Part shown: piece by piece, positions 32,431-61,147 of the stretch
How the letters are laid out: every line of letters starts with the position of its first letter
Position numbering within the stretch: the stretch's first letter is position 1
Assembly: GCA_045538335.1 (NCBI GenBank)
Contig: JAZSRF010000045.1
Location: 5,708-69,707, forward strand
Length of the DNA: 64,000 nt
Origin: Clostridia bacterium
Lineage (GTDB): Bacteria > Bacillota > Clostridia > TANB77 > CAG-465
Reading direction: 5' to 3'
Made by a program: the position numbers and the translations under genes
The notes under the pieces: generated by a model
What the model was told of the DNA's origin: nothing
The model's input: only the letters and a program-made list of their open reading frames with translations
Database searches by the model: none

Positions 32431-32465
32431 CTTTTACAGCTTTTAGTTTACAGAAGGCTGTATTT

Positions 32466-33844: not shown

Positions 33845-34033
33845 TTAATAATAATATTTGCCGTAATTTTCGTGAATCCACTTTTCAAGATCTTGCTTAT
33901 TAATAATTACTTTTCGCTTAAATCTTATACAAGGGAATCCATCAACTTTAATTAGTTCTAGCATTAAGTTTCTTCCAATGCCCAACATCTTTCTTGCTTC
34001 CTCAATGCTAATACATACCTTTTCGTCTTGCAT
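33845..34033 (-). CDS. xis: excisionase/AlpA-like small HTH DNA-binding protein
   Basis: 62 aa from ATG 34033 (RBS AAGGAGG): MQDEKVCISIEEARKMLGIGRNLMLELIKVDGFP. Directly upstream of int. Confidence 0.5.
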   Translation of the reverse strand: MQDEKVCISIEEARKMLGIGRNLMLELIKVDGFPCIRFKRKVIINKQDLEKWIHENYGKYYY

Positions 34034-34140
34034 ACTATACCTCCTTCTTCTTAAATTGAAAGGATTTGTTATATAAATAATCTGTCCACTTAATATAACT
34101 AAAAATAACAAATGTAAAATTTAAAATTATATATTTTTTA

Positions 34141-34540
34141 CTTTGCTTATTACTTGCCCCTTCACTTACTATATATCCTTCAAACACTAAAAATCGGACA
34201 AGATTTATAAAAATAGCGACTTTTTACAAAATTTCACATAATCTTCTTTGTTTTTAGTATTAATTTTTATATTCTCTCATTACTTAACAGTCCTCCAAAC
34301 ATATAAATAATTAGAAGATTTACAAAAATAACACAATTTTCTTTATTTGTTATAATTAGTTTTATCCCCTTTCACTTCCCTATCGATTGAAACAGTGAAA
34401 GTCGGACAAAATATTAAAAATTTATTTAATTTTTTATAAATTAGATTATTTACCCCTTCACTTATATAAACAGTTGAAACACCAAAAATCTGACAAAATT
34501 TATAAAAACCGTGCTTTTTCACACAATTTCACACAAAAAT
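34141..34540. repeat. iteron-like imperfect direct repeats (CCCCTTCACTTA ... AAAAATC(G/T)GACAA(G/A)ATTTATAAAAA ... ATTTCACA) x ~2.5 in AT-rich non-coding DNA
   Basis: Copy 1 is 34156..34238; a partial copy with the hairpin CTTTCACT..AGTGAAAG is 34365..34420; copy 3 is 34455..34534. The two ~50-bp units are ~80% identical. Confidence 0.5.
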
Positions 34541-35244
34541 ACCCTTATAATTGGAAATATCAATGTAATAAAAAAGCAGTATTAAAACCACTCAAACAAA
34601 ACAAATAACTTTTGATATCTGTTTTATACATTAACTTTTGTTCATTAAATAAGAAGAAGTACTTTATTAAGTATATCAACTTTCACTTAAAATAAAGAAA
34701 AGCTTTAAAAAGGGAACATATAATATAATTAATTTAGTTTATGATGCAATACTAGATAACTTGACCTTTCCTAATGGCAAAAACCAAAGTGTTTATTCTC
34801 TACGAACCATGAAGCTGACAATAGTTATCCATAAGAAATAAAAATGTATAAATTTGAATATTACTTAAATTGTAAACTCAAAGATCAATTTCCTAAAGTT
34901 ACAGCTAACAAAAGAGTTAATTTTTAAAAAGTTCTAAAAGTTTAAAGATAAAGCAAAAAATCTATTATCAAAACAAAACTATCATATAAGAAGCAAACGA
35001 CACCAAGAGGTAAAGTATTCTTTTGCGCAAGCAAAATTGAATAAAGAAATTAAAAATCTTACTAAGATAACTTAAAACCAGATACATAATGGTACATTAT
35101 TTGTATGCATTTGACACCGAGATATGTTTAATAGTATGATAACCACACTATCTATAGTATAACTGAAAATGAGAAATCAAGCAATATTGTTTAAAAATTT
35201 GGGCGCCCTAAAATTATTTTAGGGTGCCCTCTTTGTTTTGAGAC

Positions 35245-35418
35245 CTATTCAAGTGCAAAACTAGCAAAATACATATCCTTGCCCGTGCAACGCTGTCTGC
35301 ACTTGGAAGTGCTCAATACACGAAACTTCTTTCCTTGCGTCTTTGCATCATTACGTTGAGCTTTGATATAAGCCCTACGCTCTTTAGGAGAATCAAACCA
35401 CGTTGACCAATTTTTCAT
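35245..35418 (-). CDS. small hypothetical protein (57 aa) with its own RBS and terminator
   Basis: GGAGGTG RBS; MKNWSTWFDSPKERRAYIKAQRND...; downstream hairpin GGGCGCCCTAAAAT/ATTTTAGGGTGCCC at 35204..35232. Confidence 0.3.
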   Translation of the reverse strand: MKNWSTWFDSPKERRAYIKAQRNDAKTQGKKFRVLSTSKCRQRCTGKDMYFASFALE

Positions 35419-35445
35419 TAGTGCACCTCCAATATGAGTCTTCTT

Positions 35446-35661
35446 CTACAATTCAAAAAATTCTTTTCGTTCTTCCGCAGTTATATTAAAAAGTCCCCCG
35501 TGTCCATCTTTAACTTCCCAGACCCCATCTTCGCAAGAACCTGATTTCCCAGGGAACTTATCCTTGACGCCGAGAATTGTTCCAGATGTAATCTGAACAC
35601 CCGTCTTTGTAACATAATCTTTATTGCATTTTATTTGCCATAAATTTCTGCAACAAGTCAT
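35446..35661 (-). CDS. small Cys-rich hypothetical protein (71 aa from ATG 35661)
   Basis: RBS AAGGAGG + ATG giving MTCCRNLWQIKCNKDY...SGSCEDGVWEV. The longer ORF call lacks an RBS. Confidence 0.35.
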   Translation of the reverse strand: MTCCRNLWQIKCNKDYVTKTGVQITSGTILGVKDKFPGKSGSCEDGVWEVKDGHGGLFNITAEERKEFFEL

Positions 35662-36180
35662 ATTTTTAATCCTCCTTATAATTTGTTGATGTTTATTCGA
35701 CAAGGTACTACTGCTATACAATACAGTGCCTCCTTAAAGTCGTACAAAACCTAAATGCTTTTATTATTTCATTATAGTAAAATGAAATTCAATTAAACTG
35801 ACACCTATATTATAACATATATTTTATGTAAAGTCAAATAAGAATACGCCGAGACATTTTCTACTTATTATGTTAATATTTCCAAATCACAGTCGAGCAA
35901 CTGTATATATTAGTATAGTATCACTAACTATCAGTACTATATATAAGGTCAATAATAAATGCTATATTTTAATGCAACTTATTTGTTTTTTCATTAGATT
36001 AATTTTTAAACCCGTTATTTCTTAATTTATTTATACCTAATACAGGAATAGATGCAAGACACATCGGCTCACATCTTAGAGGCACAGCCACTAAACTTGT
36101 ATTACAATTTCAATTTTGTATTACATTTGTAATACGATAACCAAGTTGGTCATTTTAAGTAGAATGCTACATATAAGCAA

Positions 36181-36232
36181 AACTACAGTATCTCTTGTTT
36201 AAGAGTAACTGTAGTTTTATTTTATTTATCCA
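36181..36232. terminator. hairpin AAAACTACAGT...ACTGTAGTTTT with T-rich flank at 3' end of the defence operon
   Basis: 11-bp inverted repeat overlapping the stop of the RloB-like gene. Confidence 0.4.
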
Positions 36233-36908
36233 TCATTTCTTCTAATAACAATCCCACATTAGAGCCCAATTCAGTCTTTAAATATTTAACATCTTCACAA
36301 AAAGACTTTTCATTTTCTATTGCTGTTCTAATATTAGCTTTAAATTTTTTGAAATCAATATTTCTTTTATTACAACCAAATATTTGATTTAACTTAACCT
36401 CTAAAAACCTTCTGTTATTGCTTATTTTTTCATTATTTAACATATCCTCTTTGCTTATGTTAAAAACTTCTTTACTATGCAATACAAGAAAAAATTCAAA
36501 AGTAGGATTTGTTACAAAAGGGAAATATCCACATCTACTAACACCCTCTAAAAACTCATCATATTGATTGTCTTTAAAATTTTGTGGATCCCTATCGACT
36601 ATAAAACATACCTTGTCTATTTCTTTACTGTACACAAATTTATCTTCATCTAAAGATTTATTAAAGTTTTCTAATTTTTTAAGCGGATGGCTTTGTCCAT
36701 ATTCGCTTTCTTCATTTTCTACCGGAACAATCTCTATCAAATCTTTTATTCCTATTTCTTCCGAATTTTCTTTTACACCTTGAAAGTATTGTAATTCTGT
36801 TTTATCTCCTTCAGAAACAATAAAATATTTAGACTTAGGTTCTTTACTTCCTTTTCTTCTTTCTAGGTTTAATCCATTTTCACTAATTATTCTCATCTGA
36901 TAAATCAC
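36222..36908 (-). CDS. RloB-like (AbiLii-type, Toprim/OLD-related) defence protein
   Basis: Toprim-like signatures YFIVSEGDKTELQYF and FIVDRDPQ. Overlaps the preceding ATPase gene by 26 nt (operon). Confidence 0.6.
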   Translation of the reverse strand: MIYQMRIISENGLNLERRKGSKEPKSKYFIVSEGDKTELQYFQGVKENSEEIGIKDLIEIVPVENEESEYGQSHPLKKLENFNKSLDEDKFVYSKEIDKVCFIVDRDPQNFKDNQYDEFLEGVSRCGYFPFVTNPTFEFFLVLHSKEVFNISKEDMLNNEKISNNRRFLEVKLNQIFGCNKRNIDFKKFKANIRTAIENEKSFCEDVKYLKTELGSNVGLLLEEMMDK

Positions 36909-38283
36909 CTACCGGAAATACAGTTTCAAAAATTGGTACTCCACCATAACGGCCTTCTAAATATGCTTTATCAATCTTTTTATCAAATCTCTCATTATAA
37001 TCTTCTAAAGAATATAACTCTGTTTGACCATATTTTTGTCTATTTGCAAACCAAACCTCATCTCTCCTTAATAAGTCAAAATCTAAAAGCCTAGATTCAT
37101 GTGTAGTAACTATTAATTGTGTATTCTTATCTTCAGAGTTAGCTAAAAATCTTTTTACAAATTCAAACGTTAATTGTGGATGCAAACATCTATCTACTTC
37201 ATCTATTAAATAAACTTTCTCTTTATTTTTATTCATCAAAATTTCAATTAGATCGAATAATCTTTGTGTACCATCGGATTCCTCAGAAAATAAATATTCA
37301 CTTTCATTATTTTTATGCTTTAATACTATCTTTTGAACTTGAATACCAGCTAATTCTGCTTTTCTCAAGATATACATTTCCTTATTTATTCTAATATTTG
37401 CTTGTTGAACAATTATTTTGTTGTATTTCTTCAAATTATCCATAAAAGCTTTTTCTATAGTATCAATCATATTCTTTAGAATATCTGGTGGTATGTTGTC
37501 TTTTAATTCTTGCAAACTTGATTTTACAACTTTACATTTGCTGATTCCCGTTCCAAATGTAGAAATTATATCATTTATTTTTTCAATATTTTCTTCTGTA
37601 GAAAAATACGGTGTATTATCTAAACCTACTTGTGGAAAAATGATAGTTAAAGTATTATTAAACCAATTAAATAAATCTCTAAAAATACATACATTATTAT
37701 CTGGAAATTCTTTATACATTGTATCTTTGTTTTTATTCATAATGGTTAAAAATAATATATTATCTTGGCTCTTCATATCTGAATAATAAACGTTATTTCT
37801 ATTTATTATATCTTGGACATCATTAAAATATTAACTGTTTAATTCTATATTTTCATTTAGTTTTCTTGTATAAATAAGTATTTCCTTATTTTTATTTTTA
37901 TCCAACTCATATAGCCATTCTGCACGAATACTATTTTCTGATAATAGCATATCAAATCCATAAGCATAATATTTATCATTAATTTTTATTTCATATTCAA
38001 ATGAAGATATCTTATCCTTATTTGAATTGTTGATTCTGCAATATAGACTTGTGACATTAAATGCTACTCCTCTTAAAATAATGTTTTTCCCAAAATTAAT
38101 TGCTTTTAATAAATTAGATTTTCCGGATGCATTAGCCCCATATACCGCTGAAAATTTTAGTAATTTTAGTTTTTCATCGCTTACTAAGTGCGCTGCTTTA
38201 TTTTTTACAGCACCCGCTATCATAGAGAATTCTTGTTCTTCATTAAAAGATAAAAAATTTGAAACTTTAAATCTTATTAACAT
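36883..38283 (-). pseudogene. ABC-type AAA_21/AAA_15 ATPase (AbiLi/AriA-like) interrupted by a single in-frame TAA (37831..37833)
   Basis: N-terminal part has Walker A FSAVYGANASGKSNLLKAI. C-terminal part has ABC signature ESDGTQRLF, Walker B VYLIDEVDRCLHP and H-loop VTTHE. Both ORFs share one frame. The 18 codons between stop and next ATG have no further stops. Confidence 0.7.
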
Positions 38284-38491
38284 ATTCTTCCTCTCCTTTT
38301 ATATTATTTTATGTGATAAAATCGTTTTTGTCAATAATGTTTTATGTAATTTAGAGCAATTTTATGAATTTGTAGGTGATTTTTTCACTTTAGCGTTGTT
38401 TTATTAACTATTTTGTATTTACACAATATTTTTATAGCATTGATTTTAATTATATCTGTTGATATAATTAATTTGTACAGGAGGTGTACTT

Positions 38492-38902
38492 ATGATTTTA
38501 TTAAGTGAAATAATCGCTGGGTTAGAAACAGTTAGTGATATCACTGATGTTTACTACAATCCCGAAACAGAAGAAACATTTTTATCTGATATCGGAGATT
38601 TTGAGGATTTAGATGAAGATGAATTAGATGAACTTTTTGAAAAATCTATAATGTTGCCTACAAGATATGATATAAACGAATATGGAATGATGGAAGAATT
38701 TATAGAAACCAAAAACAACAATACTCTTTTATATAATCAACTATGCATTGCAATTAATGGTCCTGGTGCATTTAGAAGATTCAAGGATACTTGTATTAAC
38801 TTTGATATTATTGACGAATGGTGCAAATTTAGAGATGCTAAATATAGAGAACTTGCGATAGAATGGTGTAACGAACACAATATCAAATATAAGGAGGACT
38901 AG
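38492..38902 (+). CDS. hypothetical acidic protein (element cargo)
   Basis: 136 aa with RBS AGGAGGTG, run of acidic residues (DFEDLDEDELDELFE) and motif GPGAFRRFKD. Confidence 0.45.
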   Translation: MILLSEIIAGLETVSDITDVYYNPETEETFLSDIGDFEDLDEDELDELFEKSIMLPTRYDINEYGMMEEFIETKNNNTLLYNQLCIAINGPGAFRRFKDTCINFDIIDEWCKFRDAKYRELAIEWCNEHNIKYKED

Positions 38903-38904
38903 CC

Positions 38905-39633
38905 ATGTTAAAAGCAAAATTAACAGACAATTTAGCAGGACTTACTATTAGTGGTGATCACGAAGATTTAGACAAGCTTTACGATGCTATAAATTATTTA
39001 ATTAAAGGCGAACCCAATAGTATACAAGAATATACTATGCAAAACCATTTGTATGGCTTTTTATATGATGTAAGACACGCTTATCAAGGTGATAGAGAGA
39101 TAGAATTAATAGATAACTGGGTTAGCGAAGACGTAAGAAAATGGCATGGCTTTAAAAAAGCTGAGATTACAGATAAAAACGCATATTTTAGTTTTAACTA
39201 CCCTTTACCAGATATGTTACTAGATATGGTCTTAATTCAACACTTTATCAGAAAAGTACATAAGAAAGAAAATGACATTTACAATCCATACATAAACATT
39301 GTAAATTTATTTTATAGTATTGCATTAGATCCGTTATATCAAGTACTAACACCAAACAAATTTAATACTATAAAGAACGGCCTATTGGAATCAGTTGTTC
39401 CAGTAAAATCTTTCTGTCCACAATGGTTTCAAATGATAACTTGTGATTATTTAAAATGGCCTAAAGAAAAACGATTGAAAAATCTGCCTAAGATAGCAGA
39501 TGAAATATATAATTTTATGGAATATGAGGATTATGTTAAAATAAAAATAGATATGGATAAATATTGTAAAGAAAACAATTGTACACTAGATGATGTTACT
39601 ATGGGCGAATATCCAACCGAAATAATTTGGTAA
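38905..39633 (+). CDS. hypothetical protein (element cargo), translationally coupled to 38492..38902
   Basis: 242 aa, RBS AAGGAGG, start 2 nt after upstream stop. Confidence 0.45.
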   Translation: MLKAKLTDNLAGLTISGDHEDLDKLYDAINYLIKGEPNSIQEYTMQNHLYGFLYDVRHAYQGDREIELIDNWVSEDVRKWHGFKKAEITDKNAYFSFNYPLPDMLLDMVLIQHFIRKVHKKENDIYNPYINIVNLFYSIALDPLYQVLTPNKFNTIKNGLLESVVPVKSFCPQWFQMITCDYLKWPKEKRLKNLPKIADEIYNFMEYEDYVKIKIDMDKYCKENNCTLDDVTMGEYPTEIIW

Positions 39634-39664
39634 ACAAAAACAATATTCTGTCTAGTATTTTTTA

Positions 39665-39715
39665 GAGAAATCTGGAGTTGCACTCCAAATTTCTCTAAAT
39701 TTTTGTTTTTTTCTT
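39665..39715 (+). terminator. Rho-independent terminator (TTTAGAGAAAT-CTGGAGTTGCACTCCA-AATTTCTCTAAA + T-tract)
   Basis: Nested inverted repeats followed by TTTTTGTTTTTTTC after the 242-aa gene. Confidence 0.55.
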
Positions 39716-39784
39716 TATATGCATTTTTGTTAATATAATAACTTGTAATAATAATTTTATAGTATTTAATTTATATTATTATAT

Positions 39785-39873
39785 TCTACAATTTTGTATA
39801 TACCTTCTCTACATTTTTGTATAGTACCTATAGTCATTTTTGATAATACCCTCTCTACAAAATTGTAGAGAAG
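39785..39873. repeat. three copies of CTACA(A/T)TTTTGTA(T/G)A; third copy is a 16-bp palindrome TCTACAAAATTGTAGA
   Basis: Copies at 39785..39800, 39808..39824 and 39855..39870, immediately 3' of the HTH_36 replication-like gene. Confidence 0.45.
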
Positions 39874-39890
39874 TTGCCATTTAATCCCCT

Positions 39891-40244
39891 TTAGTACCCT
39901 GCATCTATATAATCATTATAATCTAATTCATAGTCTATATTTTTCTTACGAGTGAGCCTACTGTTATCTAGTAAGTATATCTTTCTTTTTGAATCCTCAC
40001 TATTTTTTACTATCTCTACTTCTAGATATCCCTCCTTAACAAGTTTGCTTATCCATCTAGATATTGTGTTTGGATCACAATTATATAATCTTGCGAAATA
40101 TTTGTTTCCTGCAAAACAATATCCCTTTTTATTTGTTAATGCTGTTATTTCACCATATAACAATTTTTGTCCATTATTTAGATTTTCATCATATCTTACC
40201 TTTGCAGGTATTATTGCATAGTAACTTGGTTTTATTTTTTCCAT
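39891..40244 (-). CDS. HTH_36 / phage replisome-organiser N-terminal-domain-like DNA-binding protein (candidate replication initiator)
   Basis: YYAIIPAKVRYDENLNNGQKLLYGEITALTNKKGYCFAGNKYFARLYNCDPNTISRWISKLVKEGYLEVE matches the winged-helix pattern of DnaD-like/replisome-organiser N-terminal domains. Confidence 0.5.
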   Translation of the reverse strand: MEKIKPSYYAIIPAKVRYDENLNNGQKLLYGEITALTNKKGYCFAGNKYFARLYNCDPNTISRWISKLVKEGYLEVEIVKNSEDSKRKIYLLDNSRLTRKKNIDYELDYNDYIDAGY

Positions 40245-40308
40245 ATATTTTTACCTTTGATTTACCTTTCCCAAAATTGGGGAATAAAATTTATTTGCTT
40301 ATACTATA

Positions 40309-43806: not shown

Positions 43807-44046
43807 CTATTCTTCAGAAGTTATGGGCTCACTATCTTGTAAAAGCATACTCACCCATCTATATACCCTTAATTTCTCTGCAGGTACTTCATAACCCAAA
43901 GTATATTTTGCTAAATAATATACTTGTGTTACTGTAAATATCATTAACACTATAGATATTAACATTATAACAAGTTGCTTCTTTGCGCCAGGTTTCATAG
44001 TTGTAGTCTTAGCCGAAGCACCTCTTCTAGACTTTCTGCTTGCCAT
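43807..44046 (-). CDS. small membrane protein, basic N-terminus + one TM
   Basis: 79 aa, KKQLVIMLISIVLMIFTVTQVYYL. Confidence 0.3.
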   Translation of the reverse strand: MASRKSRRGASAKTTTMKPGAKKQLVIMLISIVLMIFTVTQVYYLAKYTLGYEVPAEKLRVYRWVSMLLQDSEPITSEE

Positions 44047-44099
44047 ACACTTCCCTCCATCGCAATTATACTATACACCCACTTAACTTTCAACAAAAA

Positions 44100-44840
44100 C
44101 TAAATAACTTCACACAATCTTTGCTGATTTACTGTTAAAATATCCTTTTTACTGTTTACCATGGCTGTTATATTTTGTATAACATTATTTTCCTTTGCAC
44201 AATCATTATATCTACTCAGTACGTATTTGTTTTCATTAAGTTTATCTGCAATTTCATTTGCTCTTTCTAAATCTTTGTTTTTATATGCTTTATACCATTC
44301 TTCACATTTCTTTAAAAATTCATTTTTCTTTTGTTCTAATTTATCTATAACATTATTTAAATACTTTATAAACTCACTATTCATTATATAATTTTTAAGT
44401 TTATCAAAAAATTTATATACATAATCTCCTACTATATTATTTTTTAAGTAGTTTGATTCAACTATTTCAATACCATTTTTTAAAGAGGTTATAAGTCCGC
44501 CTTTTTTAGCTATATCTTTTAACTCACTTAATGAATTAATACTCTTTTTGGATAAGCCCATGATCTCAAGGCCCTCTCTTATTGTACTTTTTACAGCTGT
44601 AGCTATTACCTCTTTAATATCTTTCGTCTTTATTGCATCCTTTATGTCCATAAGTACGTCCTTTACCGCATCCGGAACAGGCAAAGCTTTAATAACATAT
44701 TTTGTCGCGTGATCTACTGTTTTTTCTACAGCGCCCGTTAAATCTTCCTTTAAAGTTTCCATTTTACTATCCTTACTAAGGTCCATGGCCAACTCCTTTG
44801 TATTTTGTATAATTTCATTTATTTCATTAGACAAATTCAT
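44100..44840 (-). CDS. hypothetical alpha-helical protein, last gene of the Tad-like operon
   Basis: 246 aa, 2 nt after the TadB-like gene. Confidence 0.35.
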   Translation of the reverse strand: MNLSNEINEIIQNTKELAMDLSKDSKMETLKEDLTGAVEKTVDHATKYVIKALPVPDAVKDVLMDIKDAIKTKDIKEVIATAVKSTIREGLEIMGLSKKSINSLSELKDIAKKGGLITSLKNGIEIVESNYLKNNIVGDYVYKFFDKLKNYIMNSEFIKYLNNVIDKLEQKKNEFLKKCEEWYKAYKNKDLERANEIADKLNENKYVLSRYNDCAKENNVIQNITAMVNSKKDILTVNQQRLCEVI

Positions 44841-44842
44841 AT

Positions 44843-45715
44843 TTATTCCTCCTTATATATTTTTGAAATTAAATATGCTATTAAAATGTAAGAAAACGCA
44901 TTAAAGTTTAACACAAGTTTGCCAAAAAACGTTTCACGCATAATACTTGCATATTCGTTATTTGTAAATACAAACATTACCACGACTAAAACATTTAACA
45001 CTACCATTATTAGTAATGTTAAAATGTCTGCATATGCTTTTTCTTTTGCAGATTCTTTATGTATATTTTCTTTTGTTATTATATTTATATACCTCTCTAA
45101 CACATTGTTAAAATCTCCACCATTTAAATAACAAACTTGACAAGCATTAACAAAACCATCAAACGCTTTTACATTTACTTCATTTTTTAAATTATTAAAA
45201 GCCTCTATTACATTCATTCCTCTAGATATATTGTTTTTGAAGGCACCTACATATTTCCTTAGCGGTTCTCCCACCTCTGTTCTTTGAATAGCGCCAATAA
45301 TATTGTTGTCTCTGTCTATGTGATTTTTTATATTCACAACATACATTGGTAATAATTTTATAATCTTTGATTTTTCGTGGTTTAACAGAATCTTAAATAA
45401 TATAATTGGCGAAAATAAAAATGGTAAAGATAAAATTAATGCTGTTGTAAGGACTTTAATATACGAATAAAACACTGTAAAGAATATTACAAAAAGGCAA
45501 AACATTATTATTAATAAAATAACAGGGCTTAATTTATTAGTTTTTTCAGGAACAAGTCTTCTTTTTAAAGATATGCTAATATATTCTGAAAGTCTTATAT
45601 ACGGTTTTGTTTGTATAATTTTAGATTTTAAATTGTTTGTTTGAATAGCCGGAGTAACAAGATAGATTAAATTACCAAGGATTAATATGCTAATTATTAC
45701 AATGATTACTATCAT
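44843..45715 (-). CDS. TadB/TadC-like (T2SS-F family) inner-membrane platform protein
   Basis: N-terminal TM, cytoplasmic helical domain, C-terminal TM pair; 290 aa. Overlaps the CpaF gene. Confidence 0.5.
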   Translation of the reverse strand: MIVIIVIISILILGNLIYLVTPAIQTNNLKSKIIQTKPYIRLSEYISISLKRRLVPEKTNKLSPVILLIIMFCLFVIFFTVFYSYIKVLTTALILSLPFLFSPIILFKILLNHEKSKIIKLLPMYVVNIKNHIDRDNNIIGAIQRTEVGEPLRKYVGAFKNNISRGMNVIEAFNNLKNEVNVKAFDGFVNACQVCYLNGGDFNNVLERYINIITKENIHKESAKEKAYADILTLLIMVVLNVLVVVMFVFTNNEYASIMRETFFGKLVLNFNAFSYILIAYLISKIYKEE

Positions 45716-46889
45716 ATTTTTTCTCCTTTAGTTTATACAAGCTCTTATATTCAATTTCTTCCGTAGTATTGTTTAATACAATTTCTGCTATTTCATTTAC
45801 TTTGAAATCTTTCATAAAAACAATATAATCTATACTACTAGCTAAAAATCTTCTTAAGAAGGGTTCAGTATAATGTTGAGCCTTAATGTCTTTTTTGATT
45901 AGAGTTATAAGTCGATCTATTGTATTAGTTACACTATCTGCATGAACTGTTGCAAGGCCGGTATGCCCGGTAGAAATTGCATCAAAAAATGAGTTTGCTT
46001 CAGCACCTTTAAGCTCACCAATTATTATAATATCGTTAGACATTACGAGAGAATGTCTAGAAAGCTTGTCTAGGTCTATATTCTTCTCTTGACCCCTATT
46101 TAATATACATTCCCTCTGTATAACATTTCTACCACTTAAATAAAACTCTGCCGTCTCTTCATTTGTTGTTATCGCATACTCTTTTGGTATCCTTTCAATA
46201 AGAGCCTTCAATAAAGTTGTTTTTCCACTTCCACCTTTACCACATAAAATAACATTTTTCATGCTACCAACATGAAATTTTAGTATTTTATATGCCTCTT
46301 TATCTAGCAAATTGTATTCAGCATAAAGTTTTTCTAAACTCACACCCCTATTTTTTCTATGAATACGTATAACAAGGCTCGGTCCTATAACATTTGCAGG
46401 TTCTAATCCCGCTTCAATTCTTAAAGAGTTTTTTCTATCACTAAATACAACTATTGGAGTTTCAAAATTTATATTTGCATTATTTTTTAAAGCGCAAAAT
46501 CTTACATACTCTTCAAAATCCTCATTTGATTCAAACGACTGATTGGTTCTTGTCCACTTGCCCTTTTCTTTTATATATATACCGTTATATGCAACCACCC
46601 TGATATCACTTATATTTTCATTATCTATATACTTTTGTAAAATCCCATAACCATATATTTTATCCATTATTTCACTTGTAATACTTCTTATTCTTGTTAT
46701 ATCATTTAAATGATACTTGTTATACAGCTCACTTGTTATCCTTTCCTTTACATCTTGTTTTCTACTACTTATTATTATTTCATCTTGCTCTTTTATTAAG
46801 CCTAGTGTTAACTCTTTTATTATCTGCTTGTCTGTTTTTATATCTTGTTTTTCTTCTTTAGCTATCACTTTATACGCATTAATTATCAT
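45690..46889 (-). CDS. CpaF/TadA-type secretion ATPase (T2SS-E/VirB11 superfamily)
   Basis: Walker A ILCGKGGSGKTTLL, Asp box, Walker B IIIIGELKG, His box GHTGLATVHA. Confidence 0.8.
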   Translation of the reverse strand: MIINAYKVIAKEEKQDIKTDKQIIKELTLGLIKEQDEIIISSRKQDVKERITSELYNKYHLNDITRIRSITSEIMDKIYGYGILQKYIDNENISDIRVVAYNGIYIKEKGKWTRTNQSFESNEDFEEYVRFCALKNNANINFETPIVVFSDRKNSLRIEAGLEPANVIGPSLVIRIHRKNRGVSLEKLYAEYNLLDKEAYKILKFHVGSMKNVILCGKGGSGKTTLLKALIERIPKEYAITTNEETAEFYLSGRNVIQRECILNRGQEKNIDLDKLSRHSLVMSNDIIIIGELKGAEANSFFDAISTGHTGLATVHADSVTNTIDRLITLIKKDIKAQHYTEPFLRRFLASSIDYIVFMKDFKVNEIAEIVLNNTTEEIEYKSLYKLKEKKYDSNHCNN

Positions 46890-48099
46890 AAAACGCTCCT
46901 ATCTTTGAGTCTATTTCGTTTTCCATATTTTTATTTGACATTAAGCCTAAAATTTGTGCTACATTATCCACTTTGTCAACAGATGAAATGTTTAATTCAC
47001 CTAGTCCATTTATTATACCCTCCAACCTTGTGTCTTCTGCCACCTCTAAACATATATTATACCCCTCAAGTACTGCTGCTATTTGTTTTAAAGAAAGGGA
47101 ATCTTTCTTGACTTTGTTTATAACTACACATACTTTTTCTTTTGGTATTTTCCAAATGTTTGTTATAAGGTCTAAATATTTTACAGCTTGTCTCATACTT
47201 ATAAAATTAGCATTAACTACAAAAAATATTTTGTCCGCTTTTGCAAGTGAATATGGCACAACATCTAAAAACGGAGCTGATGGCATATCCAATATGAGTA
47301 CGTCATATTCATTTTCTGTTTCAGAATATAGTTTAGAGTAATACTCCTCTGAAAGTTTATTTTGACATTCGTATATTCCCATATTATTAGTTATAAAAGA
47401 AAGTTTTCCATTTCTTCTTTTCTCTTTACTAACAAGTTCATTTAACATTTGCGCATTAAATGAGCCTCTATCTATTTCTTCCATTACAAATTGCAAACTG
47501 TTGCCAGAACTATTTAAGTTGTTATATATATCTATTGCTGCATTTTGTATATCCATATCTACAAGAAGTGTATTTAACTTTAATTTTCTGCTTGTTATTT
47601 GTGCTAAGATACTTGCGATATATGACTTTCCTGCTCCACTAGTGCCAAACACACATATCTTTTGTTTTGTTAGAATATTTATTTTACTATTATTACTTAT
47701 ATTTTCTTTTATTACTTTATTGCTATTTTTTAATACAATCATCTTTTGTTTAGAATCTATCATATTAAAAATATCACTAAAACCTGCCTCGCTTCCCTCT
47801 ATAATATCAAAAATATTTTTAGAAAACAGAAAACCTTTATATATTTCATCTAGCTTATCCACACACAATATCACTTTTAATTCTGCTGTTATGCTTCTGA
47901 TACTATTTACATAGTCCTCTTTACTCATATTTCCTTCCAGTGTATCTTTTGTTATTAAAACATCTACTTTATATTTTTGAAGATATTCTAGCGTATCCTC
48001 TTTAGTTGTCATATCATAAGTGTGGACATCATATTTTCCACATCTTTTAATTTTTTCTAAAAGCGCAATGTTATTCATTGCTATTAATATTTTCTTCAT
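46879..48099 (-). CDS. CpaE/TadZ-like ATPase: N-terminal receiver-like domain + MinD/ParA-fold ATPase with atypical P-loop GTSGAGKS
   Basis: MinD-like DxD LLVDMD, Walker B VLILDMPSA, VCVVINKV; P-loop VFGTSGAGKSY instead of KGGxGKT. Confidence 0.5.
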   Translation of the reverse strand: MKKILIAMNNIALLEKIKRCGKYDVHTYDMTTKEDTLEYLQKYKVDVLITKDTLEGNMSKEDYVNSIRSITAELKVILCVDKLDEIYKGFLFSKNIFDIIEGSEAGFSDIFNMIDSKQKMIVLKNSNKVIKENISNNSKINILTKQKICVFGTSGAGKSYIASILAQITSRKLKLNTLLVDMDIQNAAIDIYNNLNSSGNSLQFVMEEIDRGSFNAQMLNELVSKEKRRNGKLSFITNNMGIYECQNKLSEEYYSKLYSETENEYDVLILDMPSAPFLDVVPYSLAKADKIFFVVNANFISMRQAVKYLDLITNIWKIPKEKVCVVINKVKKDSLSLKQIAAVLEGYNICLEVAEDTRLEGIINGLGELNISSVDKVDNVAQILGLMSNKNMENEIDSKIGAFYDN

Positions 48100-49774
48100 A
48101 ACTCTCTCCTTCTATTAATCCGTGTTCAAAAGGTGATGCTTTTATTTCTAAATTAAAATTTGTACTATTCATACAAATATGTGCATTTCCTCTAGACAGC
48201 GCTGATATGCTTTTTATAGCCATATTATTTTTCAACATTCTTTCAAACATTTCTATATCTTGCCATTCCATCCTAAACATTACTTTGCTATTTGTATTAT
48301 TTAATATGCTCTTTCCAAAATTCCCATTATCCAAGTTAAACAAATCACATATATCTTGACTTATAGCAACAATCCCCGCTTTTTTCTTTCTTAATGTTTT
48401 AAACATATTGTATATATTTTGTACTACATAGCTATCTTGTCCAAAGCCTATCGTTTTCCATAACTCATCAAAATATATAAGTGTTTTTTGCCTTATTAAC
48501 TCATATATCTTAGGTATAAATACTTTCATTTCTTTAGAAATATCTTTTATATCTTTGTTTGATAAATCAAAACAATATATTTCAGTATTATTTCTACTAG
48601 TAGTACAACTGCTTTCTCCCATGTTATTTAATAATTCTATATCTTTGTTAGCATTTTGCTCTTTTAACACATTGTATAAATCTTTCATCGTTGGAAACTT
48701 TCTTTTATATTTTGGCTTAATATATAAATTATCCGCATCTTGCAAGTCATACAGAGATGCCTCATTTTTGTCAATTCCATAACTCTTATATATTTTTATA
48801 ACAGTATTTCTTAACATTTCTTTATCCAAGGAAGGTACTAACAATAGCACACATTGTATTATTTGCTCTACCTTTTCACTCAAGAAGTCATTACTTTGCA
48901 AACAAGACTCATTTATCTCAAACGGATTGTAGTTTTGTATATTATAAACTTGTCCTCCCAGAGTTTTTACAAGTTTTACATACTCCCCTTCAGGGTCAAC
49001 TATTATTTGTCTAATTCCTTTATACGCATTTCTTAAAATCATAAGCTTTACAAAATACGACTTTCCCGCGCCACTGCTCCCAAACACACACATGTTGTAA
49101 TTATTATTCTTAATGTCAAACAAATCTATCATACACAAATTATTATTTGTTTTTCCTAATAATATCCCCTCTTTATTTAACATTTCTCTTTCAAAGAATG
49201 GAAATAGCTTAGTTAATGCTTCTTCTGTAAATATGCTATATGAATATTTTGAAATACTTTCATTATTATTCATAATAGGTAGTGTTGCAATATATGCCTC
49301 CTTCTGCCTAAAGTTAGCAGGTTTTGCTATTATCTGTTTTGTATACAACATATTTATACATGCTTTTTGCTTTGCCATTAATTCTTCTATACTTTTTGCT
49401 TTTATAACAATATATGTGCTCAATAGATAAACTTGTTCATCATCTATTTGTATCTTCTTTCTAAGCTCAGTTGCTTCTTTTTTTGTGTTGTTTATTAGAT
49501 TAATGTCTATTTGATTCTTAGAAGCACCACTTATTTCTGAACTTGATTGAGATATTATATTTGTTAACTTTTTGAGAATCTCATAATTATTTTCACGTGT
49601 TATATGAAAAGATATTTCTCCTTCTTGCTTAGACGTTAAGACTTCCATTGTTTTTAGCATATGTATATTCTGTTCATATTTAATTACTATAATTGTTGAC
49701 ACATATATTCCATCTATCCTTAAATGATCATATTTAATCTGTACATTTAACGGTAAAATTTTAACTATATCCAT
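48071..49774 (-). CDS. VirB4/HerA-like (AAA_10) P-loop ATPase
   Basis: Walker A VFGSSGAGKSY, then IVDPEGEY, Walker B LIYFDELWK; 567 aa. Confidence 0.5.
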   Translation of the reverse strand: MDIVKILPLNVQIKYDHLRIDGIYVSTIIVIKYEQNIHMLKTMEVLTSKQEGEISFHITRENNYEILKKLTNIISQSSSEISGASKNQIDINLINNTKKEATELRKKIQIDDEQVYLLSTYIVIKAKSIEELMAKQKACINMLYTKQIIAKPANFRQKEAYIATLPIMNNNESISKYSYSIFTEEALTKLFPFFEREMLNKEGILLGKTNNNLCMIDLFDIKNNNYNMCVFGSSGAGKSYFVKLMILRNAYKGIRQIIVDPEGEYVKLVKTLGGQVYNIQNYNPFEINESCLQSNDFLSEKVEQIIQCVLLLVPSLDKEMLRNTVIKIYKSYGIDKNEASLYDLQDADNLYIKPKYKRKFPTMKDLYNVLKEQNANKDIELLNNMGESSCTTSRNNTEIYCFDLSNKDIKDISKEMKVFIPKIYELIRQKTLIYFDELWKTIGFGQDSYVVQNIYNMFKTLRKKKAGIVAISQDICDLFNLDNGNFGKSILNNTNSKVMFRMEWQDIEMFERMLKNNMAIKSISALSRGNAHICMNSTNFNLEIKASPFEHGLIEGESYEENINSNE

Positions 49775-49777
49775 AAT

Positions 49778-50320
49778 CTATTCCTTTTGTATATACCTTC
49801 TTAAAATATTTTCTACTTGTTGTTTAGACTTTATCTGACTTATTCTTATTCCAAACTCTTGCAAATTTGAAAATATATTTTCTATTTCATCTGTGATATC
49901 TTTTTGTGAATCTTCAACAATTAAATAATGATTTGTTTTATATAATTTGTTTGAATTTTCTATTTCCTTTAAATATTTTATATATTTTTCTATTGCAAAT
50001 TTTAATCGGTCACTAGACACCTCTCTCATTCGTACCTTATACTCTGCTATTTGTTCATCAAAATTTGAATTATCCTTAGATATTAAAATTTGAAATTTAT
50101 CCGGCAATCCCCTTATACATGCTAAATATGCTTGATATATCTTATACTTTGTTTCCTCATCACATGCAATAATATTTGCCGGGTCTATTTTATAAATAAT
50201 TACATATTTATCTTTTAAAATTATTTGTCCTTTTTCTGTTATGGACTGTACATTATACAAATCTTGTATATTTTTAATCTTTAAATTGGCTGTTATTTTA
50301 TTCATATTTTCCCCTTTCAA
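49778..50320 (-). CDS. hypothetical protein, first gene of the operon
   Basis: 180 aa with RBS GGGGAAAA; 3 nt upstream of the VirB4-like gene. Confidence 0.35.
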   Translation of the reverse strand: MKGENMNKITANLKIKNIQDLYNVQSITEKGQIILKDKYVIIYKIDPANIIACDEETKYKIYQAYLACIRGLPDKFQILISKDNSNFDEQIAEYKVRMREVSSDRLKFAIEKYIKYLKEIENSNKLYKTNHYLIVEDSQKDITDEIENIFSNLQEFGIRISQIKSKQQVENILRRYIQKE

Positions 50321-50554
50321 AAGTAACTTTTATTCTCCTCTAGCATATACTTTAATATATAGATTAAGGAGATGGTTTTGTGAATAACATGTTAAATTCA
50401 AATTTATTAAATTTACTAGCTGGTGTAGATAAAGACAAATTGGAACAAGTGTCTAATATGGTAAGAAATATGTCAAAAGACGATTTGAACAACTTAGTTG
50501 GAATGCTTGGAATGAACAATACTAATAACGAACAAAAATAAGGTTGTGGTATAA

Positions 50555-51013
50555 ATGAATGAACAATTAAATGAAATCAACAATAGTTCAGATAATCCAA
50601 TATTGGATATTGTAAATACTATTCAGAGCAAACTAAACGAAAACAATTCTAATAATACTACTAATAATGTGAATAATAATATAAATAATAATTTCAATGA
50701 TTCAAATAAAAAAGATTTAAGTGGATTAGATATTTCAAAGATTTTGGAGAACTTTACTGGTGCATCGACAAAAAGTAATTTTAGCGCACCGAATTTAGGT
50801 AGTAACAATTCAGGATTAAATTTAGATATGAATACCATTATGAATGTCTCAAAAGTATTAAATGGAGTAAATCAAGCTGATCCTAGAAGAGACTTGCTAA
50901 CCTCACTTAAACCCTTTTTACGAGAAACTAGGCAGAAGAATATAGATACTTATATAACGTTACTTGGTGTTATGAAAGCGTTTAACATTTTTACAAATAA
51001 GGACCGTGATTAA
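50555..51013 (+). CDS. hypothetical Asn-rich low-complexity protein
   Basis: 152 aa, NNSNNTTNNVNNNINNNFN stretch; divergent from the Tad-like operon. Confidence 0.35.
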   Translation: MNEQLNEINNSSDNPILDIVNTIQSKLNENNSNNTTNNVNNNINNNFNDSNKKDLSGLDISKILENFTGASTKSNFSAPNLGSNNSGLNLDMNTIMNVSKVLNGVNQADPRRDLLTSLKPFLRETRQKNIDTYITLLGVMKAFNIFTNKDRD

Positions 51014-51365
51014 AATGTATTATCCTTTGTATAACAACCCATTTTATTACCCTAACGGCGCATATATGCAAAATATGTGCTATTTTGGGCATGTTCAGGA
51101 TATAAACACTAATACACCTAACATACACGCTACACAAAATTTTAATAACGAAGATAACTTTATAAGAAGCGAAAACTACGATACAAACAGTATATTAAAC
51201 AATGATTTGTTTTCCTTAAACGGAGACAGATTAGAAGTATTCGGGATAAGCATAAACATTGACGACTTAATAATACTAATAATGCTTTTCTTTATGTTTA
51301 GAGAAAAGCAAATAGATTATAGCATAATCATAATTCTCGCTCTTATACTATTTGACCAAAATTAA
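51006..51365 (+). CDS. hypothetical Tyr/Asn-rich protein with C-terminal TM segment
   Basis: 119 aa, overlaps the upstream gene by 8 nt; C-terminal LIILIMLFFMF...IIIILALILF. Confidence 0.35.
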   Translation: MIKMYYPLYNNPFYYPNGAYMQNMCYFGHVQDINTNTPNIHATQNFNNEDNFIRSENYDTNSILNNDLFSLNGDRLEVFGISINIDDLIILIMLFFMFREKQIDYSIIIILALILFDQN

Positions 51366-51366: not shown

Positions 51367-51519
51367 TTAAGCTATTAAATTGGTAGTTGATATACTTTCA
51401 TAATATTCTACTAATAGTTTGTCTATCTCTTTACTTGTTGTAAGTATCTCCTCATAAGACTTGTTTTCTAGAATTTGTGTTTCTAGTTTCTCTCTTAACA
51501 CATTTATTTGTTCTAACAT
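51367..51519 (-). CDS. Spo0E-like small sporulation regulatory phosphatase (~48-50 aa; not in ORF track)
   Basis: MLEQINVLREKLETQILENKSYEEILTTSKEIDKLLVEYY contains the Spo0E-family S-x-E-[IL]-D-K-L-[IL] motif. The 3' end coordinate is approximate. Confidence 0.4.
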   Translation of the reverse strand: MLEQINVLREKLETQILENKSYEEILTTSKEIDKLLVEYYESISTTNLIA

Positions 51520-51806
51520 GTTAATCACATCCCTTATGATTTATTTATAACATTTTTGTACAAGCATGTCAATATTTTTTCACCAACAATCGACCGCAAG
51601 TTTCGCTATTTTTCGACATTTTTTAATATGTTAGTAGTCATAAAACAAATATGTGACTTTTTGTCAACTATTTACAAACCAACGTTCTAATAGTATAATA
51701 TTTCTATATTTCTAATTGCATTTATGATGTTTTTCATTAATTTTCGACATAAAATTTTAGTTTGACATTTATTAAAATATTATTATACTAATTTTTAGAA
51801 AGGAAA

Positions 51807-52049
51807 GTGATTAAAATGGGATATTCACAAACAAAGAAGCTAAAATTACCAAACATTGTTGTAAACAAAGAAGAATTAAATAATGTTACCGTTATTGAAC
51901 CTATTAACTTTATATCTAAAAAGGAAAACGAAAAAATAATTGAAAGTCTTAAACAAAGTATCATAGACTTTAAAAATCCAGATAAATGGATGACATGGGA
52001 AGAGTCAAACAAAATTCTTATGGAGAAATATTTTAGTGGGAACTTATAA
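51807..52049 (+). CDS. putative antitoxin of a RelE/ParE-type TA pair
   Basis: 80 aa, overlaps downstream toxin gene by 14 nt. Confidence 0.4.
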   Translation: MIKMGYSQTKKLKLPNIVVNKEELNNVTVIEPINFISKKENEKIIESLKQSIIDFKNPDKWMTWEESNKILMEKYFSGNL

Positions 52050-52350
52050 TATTATAATCAACAAGACTGCTCACGCTGATATCGACAACATATATAATTA
52101 TTGTTGTAATATTAGTGTTGAATATGCTTTTAAAGTTAAAACCAACATAATAGTTGCTATAAATTCTATCTTATACTTCCCTTATGCTTCTCCTATTTAT
52201 ATTATATTTCAAAATATTGTTTTCCGAAAGAAAATAGTTGATAAGCGATATTTAATTATTTTTTCAATATTTGAAGATTCAATTATTATTCACAGAATAT
52301 ATGACGGGCGTAGAAACATTAATCCTGCCAGTTTATTCAATACAAATTAA
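52036..52350 (+). CDS. RelE/ParE-family toxin
   Basis: C-terminal YLIIFSIFEDSIIIHRIYDGRRNIN matches the RelE/ParE Y-x-[IL]-x-Y...h-[IL]-x-R-[IV]-x-H-x-R motif; 104 aa. Confidence 0.5.
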   Translation: MGTYNIIINKTAHADIDNIYNYCCNISVEYAFKVKTNIIVAINSILYFPYASPIYIIFQNIVFRKKIVDKRYLIIFSIFEDSIIIHRIYDGRRNINPASLFNTN

Positions 52351-59815: not shown

Positions 59816-61147
59816 ATGAAAGTTATAGCAATATTATTAGGAAAAATGGCTGTGTTAGCAGGGAAAATATTAGGTAGAGGTAGCTCTTTACCTGGTGAAG
59901 TAGCGTTAAAAGCAGATAAAAATTTACTTAAAAAATTCAAACTACCAAATACTATTATAGCAGTTACTGGTTCTTCTGGAAAAGGAAGTACTTCTAGCAT
60001 AATAGCACATGTTTATAGGAAAATGGGATATAAAGTAGTACATAATGCATCCGGAGCAAATCTAACTGCAGGTATTACAACTATGCTTTTAGAAAATTGT
60101 AATATGTTTGGAAAAGTTAATGGGGATATACTTGTTTACGAAATGGATGAAAGATATGCTAAATTTGTCTTTAATGACGTGAAACCATCTCACATTGTTA
60201 TTACAAACATTACTCGTGACCAACCACCCCGTCAAGGACATTTCGACATGGTATATAATGAAGTTAAAAAAGCTTTACCAAAAGGTGCAACATTAGTACT
60301 TAATGGTGACGACCCATATCTTATGAAATTCAATTTAGATAACGAGTATAATACTGTATATTACACATTAGATAAAACTGAATGGTCATATGAAAATAAT
60401 AAATTTAAAAACTTAAATCTTATTTATTGCCCTAAGTGTAATCAAAAGTTAGAATACGAATATTATCACTTTGAAAGTACTGGTAAATTTAATTGTCCTA
60501 AATGTGACTTTTCACATCCAAAATCTAAATATCACATAACAAATTTAGATTACACGAATTTTGAAATGACAGTAAACAATGGTTTAAAACTAAAGTTACA
60601 ATACGACTTATTATATAGTGTATATAACACAATGGCAGCTTTTACAGTATGTTCAGAGTTAGGATTGGATAATGATCAAGTTGCATCATATATTAATGAG
60701 CTTAATCAAAATAACAAAATGTATAATCACTATGAATATAACAATAAAGATGTATATGTTTTAAACAATAAAAATGAGAATAGTACTACATTTAATCAAT
60801 CACTACTTTTTACAGAACGATTTAAAGGAAGTAAAACAATAGTTATTGGTTGGAAAGAAATAAGTAGAAGATATAATTTTGATGATTTGTCTTGGCTTTA
60901 TGATATAGATTTTGAAATATTAGCTAATATAGACGTAGATAAGGTTATTTGTACAGGACCACACGCTTATGACATAGCTACACGTATAAAATTGGCTGGC
61001 ATTAACAATATAGAAATTTACAATAATATTCCTGAGGCTAAAGATGCAATATTAAACACAGATTCAAAATATATATTTGGTATTTTAAACTTTGACTATG
61101 TTGCTCCATTTAAAGCAATATTTGAATCTAAGGAGGGCTCAAAATGA
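59816..61147 (+). CDS. murT: lipid II isoglutaminyl synthase, Mur-ligase subunit MurT
   Basis: Mur-ligase P-loop IAVTGSSGKGST; C4 zinc ribbon CPKCNQ...CPKCDF; C-terminal DUF1727-type domain. Confidence 0.75.
   Translation: MKVIAILLGKMAVLAGKILGRGSSLPGEVALKADKNLLKKFKLPNTIIAVTGSSGKGSTSSIIAHVYRKMGYKVVHNASGANLTAGITTMLLENCNMFGKVNGDILVYEMDERYAKFVFNDVKPSHIVITNITRDQPPRQGHFDMVYNEVKKALPKGATLVLNGDDPYLMKFNLDNEYNTVYYTLDKTEWSYENNKFKNLNLIYCPKCNQKLEYEYYHFESTGKFNCPKCDFSHPKSKYHITNLDYTNFEMTVNNGLKLKLQYDLLYSVYNTMAAFTVCSELGLDNDQVASYINELNQNNKMYNHYEYNNKDVYVLNNKNENSTTFNQSLLFTERFKGSKTIVIGWKEISRRYNFDDLSWLYDIDFEILANIDVDKVICTGPHAYDIATRIKLAGINNIEIYNNIPEAKDAILNTDSKYIFGILNFDYVAPFKAIFESKEGSK

Follow-up and report, generated by a model that had tools for sequence, protein, structure and literature searches.

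Within a 64,000-nucleotide (nt) stretch of a Clostridia bacterium genome (assembly GCA_045538335.1, contig JAZSRF010000045.1, positions 5,708 to 69,707; hereafter the window), a compact operon joins a VirB4-type ATPase encoded in two pieces (p180 and p567) to a TadZ-like protein (p406), a secretion-type ATPase (p399), a platform protein (p290) and a helical orphan protein (p246). The module is neither a self-sufficient conjugation system nor a canonical Flp pilus locus. Our tentative reading is that a monoderm type IV secretion ATPase and a Tad-type pilus motor have here been combined into a domesticated chimera that is inherited vertically. A preliminary description, made from the sequence alone, had called it a Tad/Flp-like secretion operon. 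The seven minus-strand open reading frames (ORFs) and the motifs quoted there are all present, so that the observation itself was confirmed; its interpretation was partly supported, as the Tad-type motor and platform proved dispensable, the core contains no membrane protein, and secretion or pilus assembly is thus a candidate function only.

The larger VirB4 piece, p567 (48071-49774; like all genes of the operon, on the minus strand), matched P-loop_TraG (E = 2.6e-15), DUF87 and AAA_10 in Pfam. In NCBIfam it matched VirB4_plasma, the VirB4 of a mycoplasma integrated conjugative element (ICE; 6.5e-49), the CD1110 family (6.8e-38) and TraC (1.9e-28), and its C-terminal two-thirds matched the VirB4 C-terminal domain in PDB entry 4ag5 (E = 2.8e-18). 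By these matches p567 represents a VirB4-type ATPase, as had been proposed, comprising the end of the N-domain and the ATPase domain with Walker A GSSGAGKS (nt 49081-49058, within VFGSSGAGKSY), VDPEGEY and Walker B YFDELW. Its homologues fall into 232 clusters at 90% identity, the full-length ones being listed at about 540-610 residues. The remainder of the N-domain is supplied by p180 (49778-50320; probable true start at the ATG at 50305), previously listed as an unknown protein. On the VirB4_plasma profile, p180 covers positions 98-273 (E = 1.1e-7) and p567 continues at 302-672; p180 orthologues bear the precomputed Pfam annotation PF26593 (TraC-like). At the level of sequence profiles, p180 thus corresponds to the N-terminal domain of a VirB4/TraC-type ATPase, encoded as a gene of its own.

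The two pieces share one reading frame. At their junction (49772-49786), a Shine-Dalgarno sequence (AAGGAA, 49786-49781) just ahead of the p567 start is followed by the p180 stop codon TAG (49780-49778), ATT and the ATG of p567 (49774-49772). We inspected the 64 kb of the source genome and about 10 kb on either side of the gene in relatives (loci labelled L001 onwards), and p180 is kept as a gene of its own in every locus examined. In the relatives the two genes variously overlap by 4 or 13 nt or stand 12 or 65 nt apart, and this varied geometry marks the split as a genuine old gene fission rather than a sequencing error or a read-through site. In L003 the VirB4-C gene (1777-3475) is frameshifted, through either local decay or an assembly error.

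The TadZ-like gene p406 (46879-48099) lies directly upstream of p399, which it overlaps by 11 nt. By sequence it matched Pfam CbiA (CbiA/ParA, a weak match at 2e-8) and gave no match to Pfam Response_reg. An AlphaFold2 (AF2) model built with 31 homologues (predicted local distance difference test score, pLDDT = 75.8) showed a five-fold beta-alpha domain of atypical receiver-like type at residues ~1-115 followed by a MinD/ParA-fold domain. The best PDB match in Foldseek was 3FKQ (E = 4.9e-11), which aligned over both domains; next came MinD, ParA and FlhG, with template modelling scores of 0.65-0.78 relative to the target. Entry 3FKQ is deposited as "NtrC-like two-domain protein" of Eubacterium rectale; we take it to be the structure of E. 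rectale TadZ, which was reportedly described by Xu et al. in 2012. The model thus predicts for p406 a TadZ-like two-domain architecture combined with a classical Walker A motif, in line with the receiver-like N-terminus, MinD fold and non-deviant P-loop noted earlier. Its best NCBIfam match, the septum-site protein Ssd (TIGR03815), was sub-threshold (36.6 against a cut-off of 154 bits).

The P-loop of p406 (GTSGAGKS, nt 47646-47623, within VFGTSGAGKSY) sets this protein apart. The published consensus of the Walker-A-like motif of TadZ is K/RGGxGxS/T (bioRxiv 10.64898/2026.07.08.737194). In the TSGAGKS of p406, Thr replaces the signature Lys/Arg and the canonical P-loop Lys is kept, so that the motif, as read from the sequence, fits neither the MinD/ParA nor the TadZ type. 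FGTSGxGKS is near-invariant across 120 p406 homologues (the family comprises 194 clusters at 90% identity). The near-identity of this P-loop to that of the VirB4 neighbour, pointed out in the preliminary description, extends to a 13-residue motif, C[IV]FG[ST]SG[AS]GKSY (window 47623-47646 and 49058-49081), which is conserved in both families (~120 members each). This shared strand-plus-P-loop motif yields weak cross-matches between p406 and VirB4 and a borderline DUF87 match on p406. Since the two folds differ, the common motif would have arisen either convergently or by a local conversion event. In L011 the TadZ-like protein (11739-12881) has no canonical P-loop, again through local decay or an assembly error. 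An alignment of C-termini showed that many distant p406 homologues end in a K-(I/L)-x-x-x-(F/L)-G-V-(K/R) tail, which we presume to resemble the membrane-targeting helix of MinD. We rejected such a helix for p406: the tail is not universal and is missing in the window protein, which ends in SKIGAFYDN.

The gene p399 (45690-46889; Walker A GKGGSGKTT, within CGKGGSGKTT) encodes a protein that matched Pfam T2SSE (E = 7e-27). Its NCBIfam matches were all below cut-off: VirB11 TIGR02788 at 135 bits (cut-off 249.95), the TadA family at 115 bits (373) and FlaI at 106. The PDB scores were near-equal for VirB11 HP0525 (1.7e-23) and CpaF (9.1e-23). These matches place p399 among the putative hexameric secretion-type ATPases of the TadA(CpaF)/VirB11/FlaI clade; the CpaF-like T2SSE character of the earlier CpaF call stands, while the specific assignment does not, VirB11 scoring equally. 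From family knowledge we assign IIIGELKG as a Walker B-like and GHTGLATVHA as a His-box-like motif. With the T2SSE protein encoded on plasmid pVpro, p399 shares 35% identity. The T2SSE orthologue of L009 is broken at about codon 292 by a prophage-like element (13051-21806). Among the genes of this element are those for a large serine recombinase, Bro-N, an S24 repressor and an integrase, its distal end lying beyond the readable sequence.

The sole membrane protein of the operon is p290 (44843-45715), with at least three hydrophobic segments in a hydrophobicity scan. All seven of its orthologues searched matched Pfam T2SSF (7/7, best E = 4.8e-8), and its profile matched the pVpro T2SSF protein with an hhalign probability of 97.6%. 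It is accordingly classed, by sequence, as a single-T2SSF-domain platform protein of the TadB/TadC type, in agreement with its earlier description. Pfam T2SSE, T2SSF and AAA_10 were thus found on p399, on the p290 orthologues and on p567, respectively.

The last gene of the module, p246 (44100-44840), encodes a protein that matched no Pfam or NCBIfam family. Its homologues numbered 147 clusters at 90% identity, and a profile search of 1.84 billion representatives gave only 140 clusters. The AF2 model is all-helical, as had been described, though of modest confidence (pLDDT = 68.6), and retrieved no Foldseek match in the PDB (best E = 0.88). p246 is a soluble orphan protein specific to the system. 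A Pfam match of distant members to DotZ was sub-threshold (18 bits) and was not used. In L006 the gene (15086-15815) is split into ORFs of 116 and 134 residues by local decay or an assembly error. Homologues of p567, p406 and p246 came mostly from metagenome assemblies, and the few named ones were labelled "Clostridia bacterium".

Comparison of the loci indicated which of these parts are obligatory. In L011, L017 and L018, the genes for VirB4-N, VirB4-C, the TadZ-like protein and p246 are present and those for T2SSE and T2SSF are absent; the p290 gene is also absent from L012 and L014. A neighbour-joining tree of VirB4 (14 sequences, 575 columns, 200 bootstraps) nested L011, L017 and L018 among T2SSE/T2SSF-bearing loci in a clade with 100% bootstrap support, the window's clade (99%) being its sister. 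By this nesting, the T2SSE and T2SSF genes were ancestral to the crown group and were then lost.

The reduction appears to go further in other relatives. A p246 profile search also found the longer proteins P0429, P0456 and P0478. By hhalign, the N-terminus of P0456 corresponds to the TadZ-like receiver domain (93%, E = 3.3e-7) and its C-terminus to the p246 domain (96%). P0456 and P0429 stand in three-gene contexts (L012 and L014) made up of a TraC-like N-domain, VirB4 and the receiver-p246 fusion, directly upstream of gyrA; the L012 VirB4 is 30% identical to p567, and the gene order there is dnaA-dnaN-recF-gyrB-module-gyrA. P0415, P0483 and P0478 lie on contigs of 1-2 kb. With the order TadZ-like-T2SSE-T2SSF-p246, a single deletion from the middle of the TadZ-like gene to the start of p246 would give exactly this fusion. 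We infer that reduction is the more plausible direction, since receiver-plus-MinD is a pre-existing TadZ design. The loci thus form a stepwise series from six genes to four and to three with a domain fusion, which points to the contacts that matter, namely those among VirB4, the receiver domain and p246. By sequence comparison, these three, with VirB4 in its split form, make up the invariant core; some lineages have lost the Tad-type ATPase and the platform, and even the domain with the MinD fold. No membrane segment was predicted in the VirB4 pieces, the TadZ-like receiver domain or p246.

The module also keeps its place in the chromosome. It occupies the same slot in all eight relatives readable on both sides (L001, L002, L004, L006, L010, L011, L017 and L018), among which VirB4 identity falls to 33%; L003 and L005 show the downstream flank only and L009 the upstream flank only. 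The upstream flank consists of a GT4 phosphotransferase gene, yqeY and a yfmF/yfmH-type M16 pair, then a Spo0E-like gene and three small divergent genes, and the downstream flank of ylbF, a p188-like gene, usually cwlD, and then tadA. Signs of a position near the replication origin are gyrA at the start of the window, gidB-soj-spo0J upstream in L009 and soj-spo0J upstream in L010. Against three relatives, the ratio of nonsynonymous to synonymous substitution rates (dN/dS, approximate, with dS near saturation) was 0.23-0.34 for p180, 0.10-0.15 for p567, 0.08-0.09 for p406 and 0.06-0.11 for p246. Across p246, p290, p399, p406 and p567 it ranged over 0.06-0.20, which overlaps the 0.03-0.22 of flanking housekeeping genes. 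As far as sequence comparison can tell, the cluster is vertically inherited in one fixed origin-proximal slot, under purifying selection, in a broad uncultured Clostridia lineage.

This persistence bears on the idea that the operon is a decaying, non-functional remnant of an ICE. The locus lacks genes for a relaxase, a coupling protein, a channel and a hydrolase, and the frameshifted VirB4 of L003, the prophage-disrupted T2SSE gene of L009 and the stepwise gene loss across lineages would all fit decay. Yet slot and gene order persist down to ~33% VirB4 identity, five of the six genes have dN/dS values of 0.06-0.2, overlapping those of their housekeeping neighbours, the catalytic motifs are near-invariant in more than 100 homologues of each ATPase, and neither an integrase nor an att-like boundary stands beside the operon. 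These observations disfavour the explanation, which we regard as very unlikely.

The fixed position also speaks against a defence system, directed at phages or plasmids, with a HerA/VirB4-like ATPase at its centre. PADLOC gave weak matches of p567 to mad8 (3.4e-17) and to HerA models, but returned no system-level match; p180, p290 and p246 had no matches, and such matches as there were concerned generic ATPases. Defence islands are not, like this operon, strictly inherited in the vertical line at one position of the core genome, and the real defence-like island of the window lies elsewhere, at 32-40 kb. A defence role is therefore highly improbable.

We then considered what the locus lacks. 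Motifs of Flp pilins, type IV pilins and the A24 peptidase (GxGDxK) were found in no frame of the 64-kb window or of the relatives' loci, although this is weak evidence, the regular expressions being negative also on the positive control pVpro. The absence of a pilin from the operon follows mainly from its packing: neighbouring genes abut or overlap by 11-29 nt, and the sole gaps, of 53 nt (p246/p79) and 59 nt (upstream of p180), leave no spare coding space. Among the window ORFs scanned with Pfam, none matched the A24 peptidase, and none matched relaxase, VirD4, VirB6 or VirB8 in Pfam or NCBIfam. The same databases returned no VirB3/PrgI, VirB6 or VirB8-like channel subunit in the operon or its flanks, nor did the gene tables of the chromosomal relatives list any. 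No operon ORF matched the TadE/TadF pseudopilins, and no second T2SSF platform occurs in the operon or flanks, p290 alone having a T2SSF domain. Neither a pilin nor a peptidase was seen within ~10 kb in any chromosomal locus, the regular-expression part of that search again being weak. The absence of pilin, peptidase and relaxase stated in the preliminary description was thus borne out for the window, and with p567 recognized as a VirB4 and no complete canonical Tad locus with pilin and peptidase found, neither of the outcomes named there as refuting it arose. A cluster on the opposite strand downstream of gyrA in L014 (8008-13466, minus) carries DnaA/IstB-like and DnaB_2 genes along with a weak match to TraG-D_C (VirD4-like). 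This cluster probably integrated as an element of its own, and it holds the only gene resembling a type IV coupling protein (T4CP) seen near any member.

These absences set the operon against ordinary Tad/Flp loci, with which it shares the canonical tadZ-tadA-tadB gene order, a T2SSE hexameric-type ATPase, a single-T2SSF platform and a receiver-plus-MinD hub like 3FKQ. Could it simply be an ordinary Tad (type IVc) pilus or pseudopilus motor, with pilin, peptidase and minor pilins encoded elsewhere and with VirB4 and p246 as plasmid-derived passengers? Gene order and folds fit; Tad and MSH loci that borrow a peptidase from elsewhere are documented, and the portion of the genome inspected is 64 kb. 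The reading concerns the genomes that bear T2SSE and T2SSF. On the other side, the operon has no Flp pilin, prepilin peptidase or pseudopilin, and none of the first two turned up in the wider searches described above; there is one platform gene in place of the TadB plus TadC of the rule; and the hub carries a classical GxxGxGKS P-loop rather than the Tad K/RGGxGxS/T. The Tad-like trio is joined to the two-piece VirB4 and to an orphan protein. What sister lineages lose is the Tad-type ATPase and platform, VirB4, the receiver domain and p246 always being kept. Tad loci, moreover, spread horizontally as a "widespread colonisation island", whereas the present system is vertically inherited. On balance we find a plain Tad motor unlikely.

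The chimera reading draws its other half from monoderm conjugative type IV secretion systems (T4SSs) of the MPF-FATA/FA classes (CD1110 family, the Mbov_0397 ICE ATPase, TrsE/PrgJ). Between them p180 and p567 cover both VirB4 domains, and their best VirB4 profile matches are monoderm ICE families. The window differs in its split VirB4, in its single chromosomal slot and in that no VirB3/PrgI, VirB6, VirB8, VirD4, relaxase or cell-wall hydrolase was found. Over their full length, plasmid VirB4/TrsE proteins are 24-27% identical to the window VirB4. In the tree, the chromosomal VirB4s group together to the exclusion of the two plasmid VirB4s included (96% bootstrap).

The combination of Tad components with a VirB4-like ATPase, which had been called atypical, has precedents on Firmicutes plasmids, where a T2SSE ATPase accompanies a monoderm T4SS, and these plasmids hint at the ancestry of the module. 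In pVpro of Vallitalea pronyensis the order is PrgI, VirB4, a VirB6-like protein, an M23 hydrolase, a receiver-like protein of 427 residues, T2SSE, two T2SSF proteins and a SAF protein. pID-A02 of Bacillus velezensis encodes T2SSE, VirB4, VirD4 and TrbL, and in the pLS20 family a gene called VirB11 (gene 37) is followed by one for a 268-residue membrane protein (gene 38). All three share with the window a VirB4-type ATPase within ~6-9 kb of a T2SSE ATPase, and in pVpro, apparently also in pLS20, a T2SSF-like membrane protein follows the T2SSE ATPase as it does here. These plasmids, however, keep PrgI, a VirB6-like protein and a hydrolase, and pID-A02 and pLS20 also VirD4, along with conjugation functions. 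By hhalign, the neighbouring genes on pVpro showed no relation to the VirB4 N-domain or to p246, and a VirB4 split in like manner was not detected there.

Other known systems resemble the module in part. PAPI-1 is a chimera of VirB4/VirD4 with a type IV pilus, and Patescibacteria carry a relaxase-less chromosomal T4SS near dnaA that has been interpreted as co-opted for a non-conjugative function. They share with the window either a VirB4 signature ATPase combined with type-IV-filament machinery or a chromosomal, origin-proximal, relaxase-less location. Those systems retain pilins and/or VirB6, VirB8 and a T4CP, none of which was found in the window locus, and the present module, which resides in a Clostridia host, has a TadZ-like hub and an orphan protein in addition. 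The actinobacterial Ssd/TadA-family pair (TIGR03815, TIGR03819) likewise combines a TadZ/CpaE-like ParA protein and a TadA-family ATPase where no classical pilus is involved; the window proteins score only 36.6 against 154 and 115 against 373 bits, and no VirB4 or p246 is described there. Type VII secretion system loci adjoining Tad loci have also been described. No description of the module itself was found in the literature searched, the coverage of which was incomplete.

By analogy with these machines, a mechanism can be proposed for the module, whose three ATPases each belong to another class and which has one platform and one orphan protein besides. Like TadZ/CpaE in Tad machines, the TadZ-like protein would serve as a hub for localization and assembly. 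Its receiver domain would bind p246, as their fusion in the sister clade suggests, and together the TadZ-like protein and p246 would recruit or organize the two-piece VirB4 hexamer at a defined membrane site. Where present, a p399 hexamer might dock on the p290 platform beside VirB4, much as VirB11 stands beside VirB4 in T4SS energy centres. The assembled complex would drive the translocation of some macromolecule, with any filament or channel subunits encoded elsewhere.

Several points weigh against this proposal and the chimera reading behind it. Genes for a substrate, a filament, a channel or DNA processing were not found, which leaves "translocation" to be read from family membership, and the case for co-operation between VirB4 and the Tad-type parts comes from operon structure and co-inheritance. 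The tied scores of p399 assign it neither to VirB11 nor to TadA, and p406, which has neither the MinD signature lysine nor the TadZ-type Walker A, may differ from both in its biochemistry. The order of losses is taken from a distance-based tree, and the chromosomal relatives examined are all metagenome-assembled genomes or metagenome assemblies. Finally, with a core devoid of membrane segments and a sole membrane protein that is dispensable in several lineages, a cytoplasmic role would fit equally well.

The last point leads to a cytoplasmic or septal machine for handling DNA or the chromosome, in which a VirB4 motor would be positioned by a MinD/ParA-like protein during segregation, division or sporulation. 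The location is suggestive, as the module lies between gyrB and gyrA in L012, directly before gyrA in L014 and near the origin elsewhere. As partner there is an ATPase of the MinD/ParA fold, for which the septum-site protein Ssd was the best NCBIfam match, though below threshold. Nearby stand cwlD, a Spo0E-like gene and a divergent operon that is preceded by a promoter motif of mother-cell type. The serine-recombinase prophage within the T2SSE gene of L009 resembles the arrangement of the sporulation-excised intervening elements of Bacillus. To our knowledge, however, VirB4 proteins are not known as chromosome pumps, and no DNA-binding domain was identified in the module. Origin proximity may reflect gene dosage only, the reason proposed for it in Patescibacteria. 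The link to sporulation is one of neighbourhood, and all promoter assignments made here are short motif matches in AT-rich DNA. We consider such a machine improbable, if worth keeping in mind.

A similarly low probability attaches to a bolder variant, a previously undescribed class of host-owned VirB4 machine. Its core, an origin-linked module inherited vertically, would have been exapted from a conjugative T4SS/Tad element for a housekeeping task in the cell cycle or in sporulation and would now be shedding its membrane motor. With comparable reserve, one could picture it moving DNA or another macromolecule at a septum; in some lineages the genes are inserted between gyrB and gyrA.

Conjugation and type IV secretion have a single universal marker, VirB4, and Tad genes mark adhesion pili that move horizontally. 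In the large, uncultured, low-GC (guanine plus cytosine) Clostridia lineage described here, both have become fixed in the core genome, with the usual partners gone and a lineage-specific partner added. If the chimera reading is true, the module would clearly exemplify how a nanomachine of mobile elements can be captured by its host. Annotation pipelines label its genes DUF87, ATP-binding protein or hypothetical, and rules in the style of CONJScan/TXSScan would probably miss the system or flag a lone VirB4.

The surroundings of the operon, where the GC content is ~27-31% and the window genes lie almost all on the minus strand, add further detail. The membrane protein p79 (43807-44046, minus), earlier counted as an operon member, falls outside the system. 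It aligns with the N-terminal membrane anchor of CapA/PGA_cap proteins of 430-443 residues that fill the same position in L006, L010, L017 and L018. By this alignment it is a truncated CapA-like remnant, neither a pilin nor a component of the system, and a promoter-like site separates it from the operon. Although the window's clade has lost the catalytic domain, the remaining stub is still conserved (dN/dS ~0.09-0.15).

Upstream of p180, a short divergent control region (50321-50379) separates the operon from a plus-strand set of three genes. On the minus strand, TTCACA-17 nt-TATATA, spotted by eye and overlapping the p53 start, may be a sigma-A-like operon promoter. A promoter and terminator scan gave a promoter count no higher than the shuffled expectation, and two sites were kept as leads only. 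The divergent set (50380-51365, plus) encodes p53, the N-rich p152 and the Tyr/Asn/Pro-rich p119, which has a C-terminal membrane segment; none has a family match. The set is co-conserved with the system in most loci of the same chromosomal slot and absent in L009. Upstream of it, a conserved AAC-16 nt-CATATACTTTA motif (50325-50354) resembles sigma-K/sigma-E mother-cell promoters and recurs in L001, L004 and L006. The products may be spore-coat-like proteins.

Beyond this set lies the gene for a 53-residue Spo0E-like aspartyl-phosphate phosphatase (51367-51528, minus; Pfam SpoOE-like, E = 7.7e-6). Most relatives have a small gene at this position, with tblastn matches in L001-L006. Between it and yfmH, a plus-strand pair (51807-52350) encodes proteins of 80 and 104 residues, the second being ParE-toxin-like (sub-threshold). 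The pair has no counterpart in L001-L003 and is probably a genome-specific toxin-antitoxin insertion.

Farther away, the region ~32400-40300 has a GC content of 0.26-0.28 and holds a tyrosine integrase in two ORFs (32466-33747), an HTH_17 excisionase-like gene, RloB and an AAA_21 ATPase as two ORFs (36222-38283), UPF0158, DUF6904 and an HTH_36 gene, with no relaxase; it looks like a decayed defence-type island. Peptidoglycan-precursor genes occur at 8656-11390 (minus) and 59816-61863 (plus). There, murD adjoins a gene that scored below the cut-off for the MurL-type UDP-MurNAc-L-Ala-L-Glu epimerase (228.6 against 700 bits), and the window also contains a murT/gatD-like pair with sub-threshold scores.

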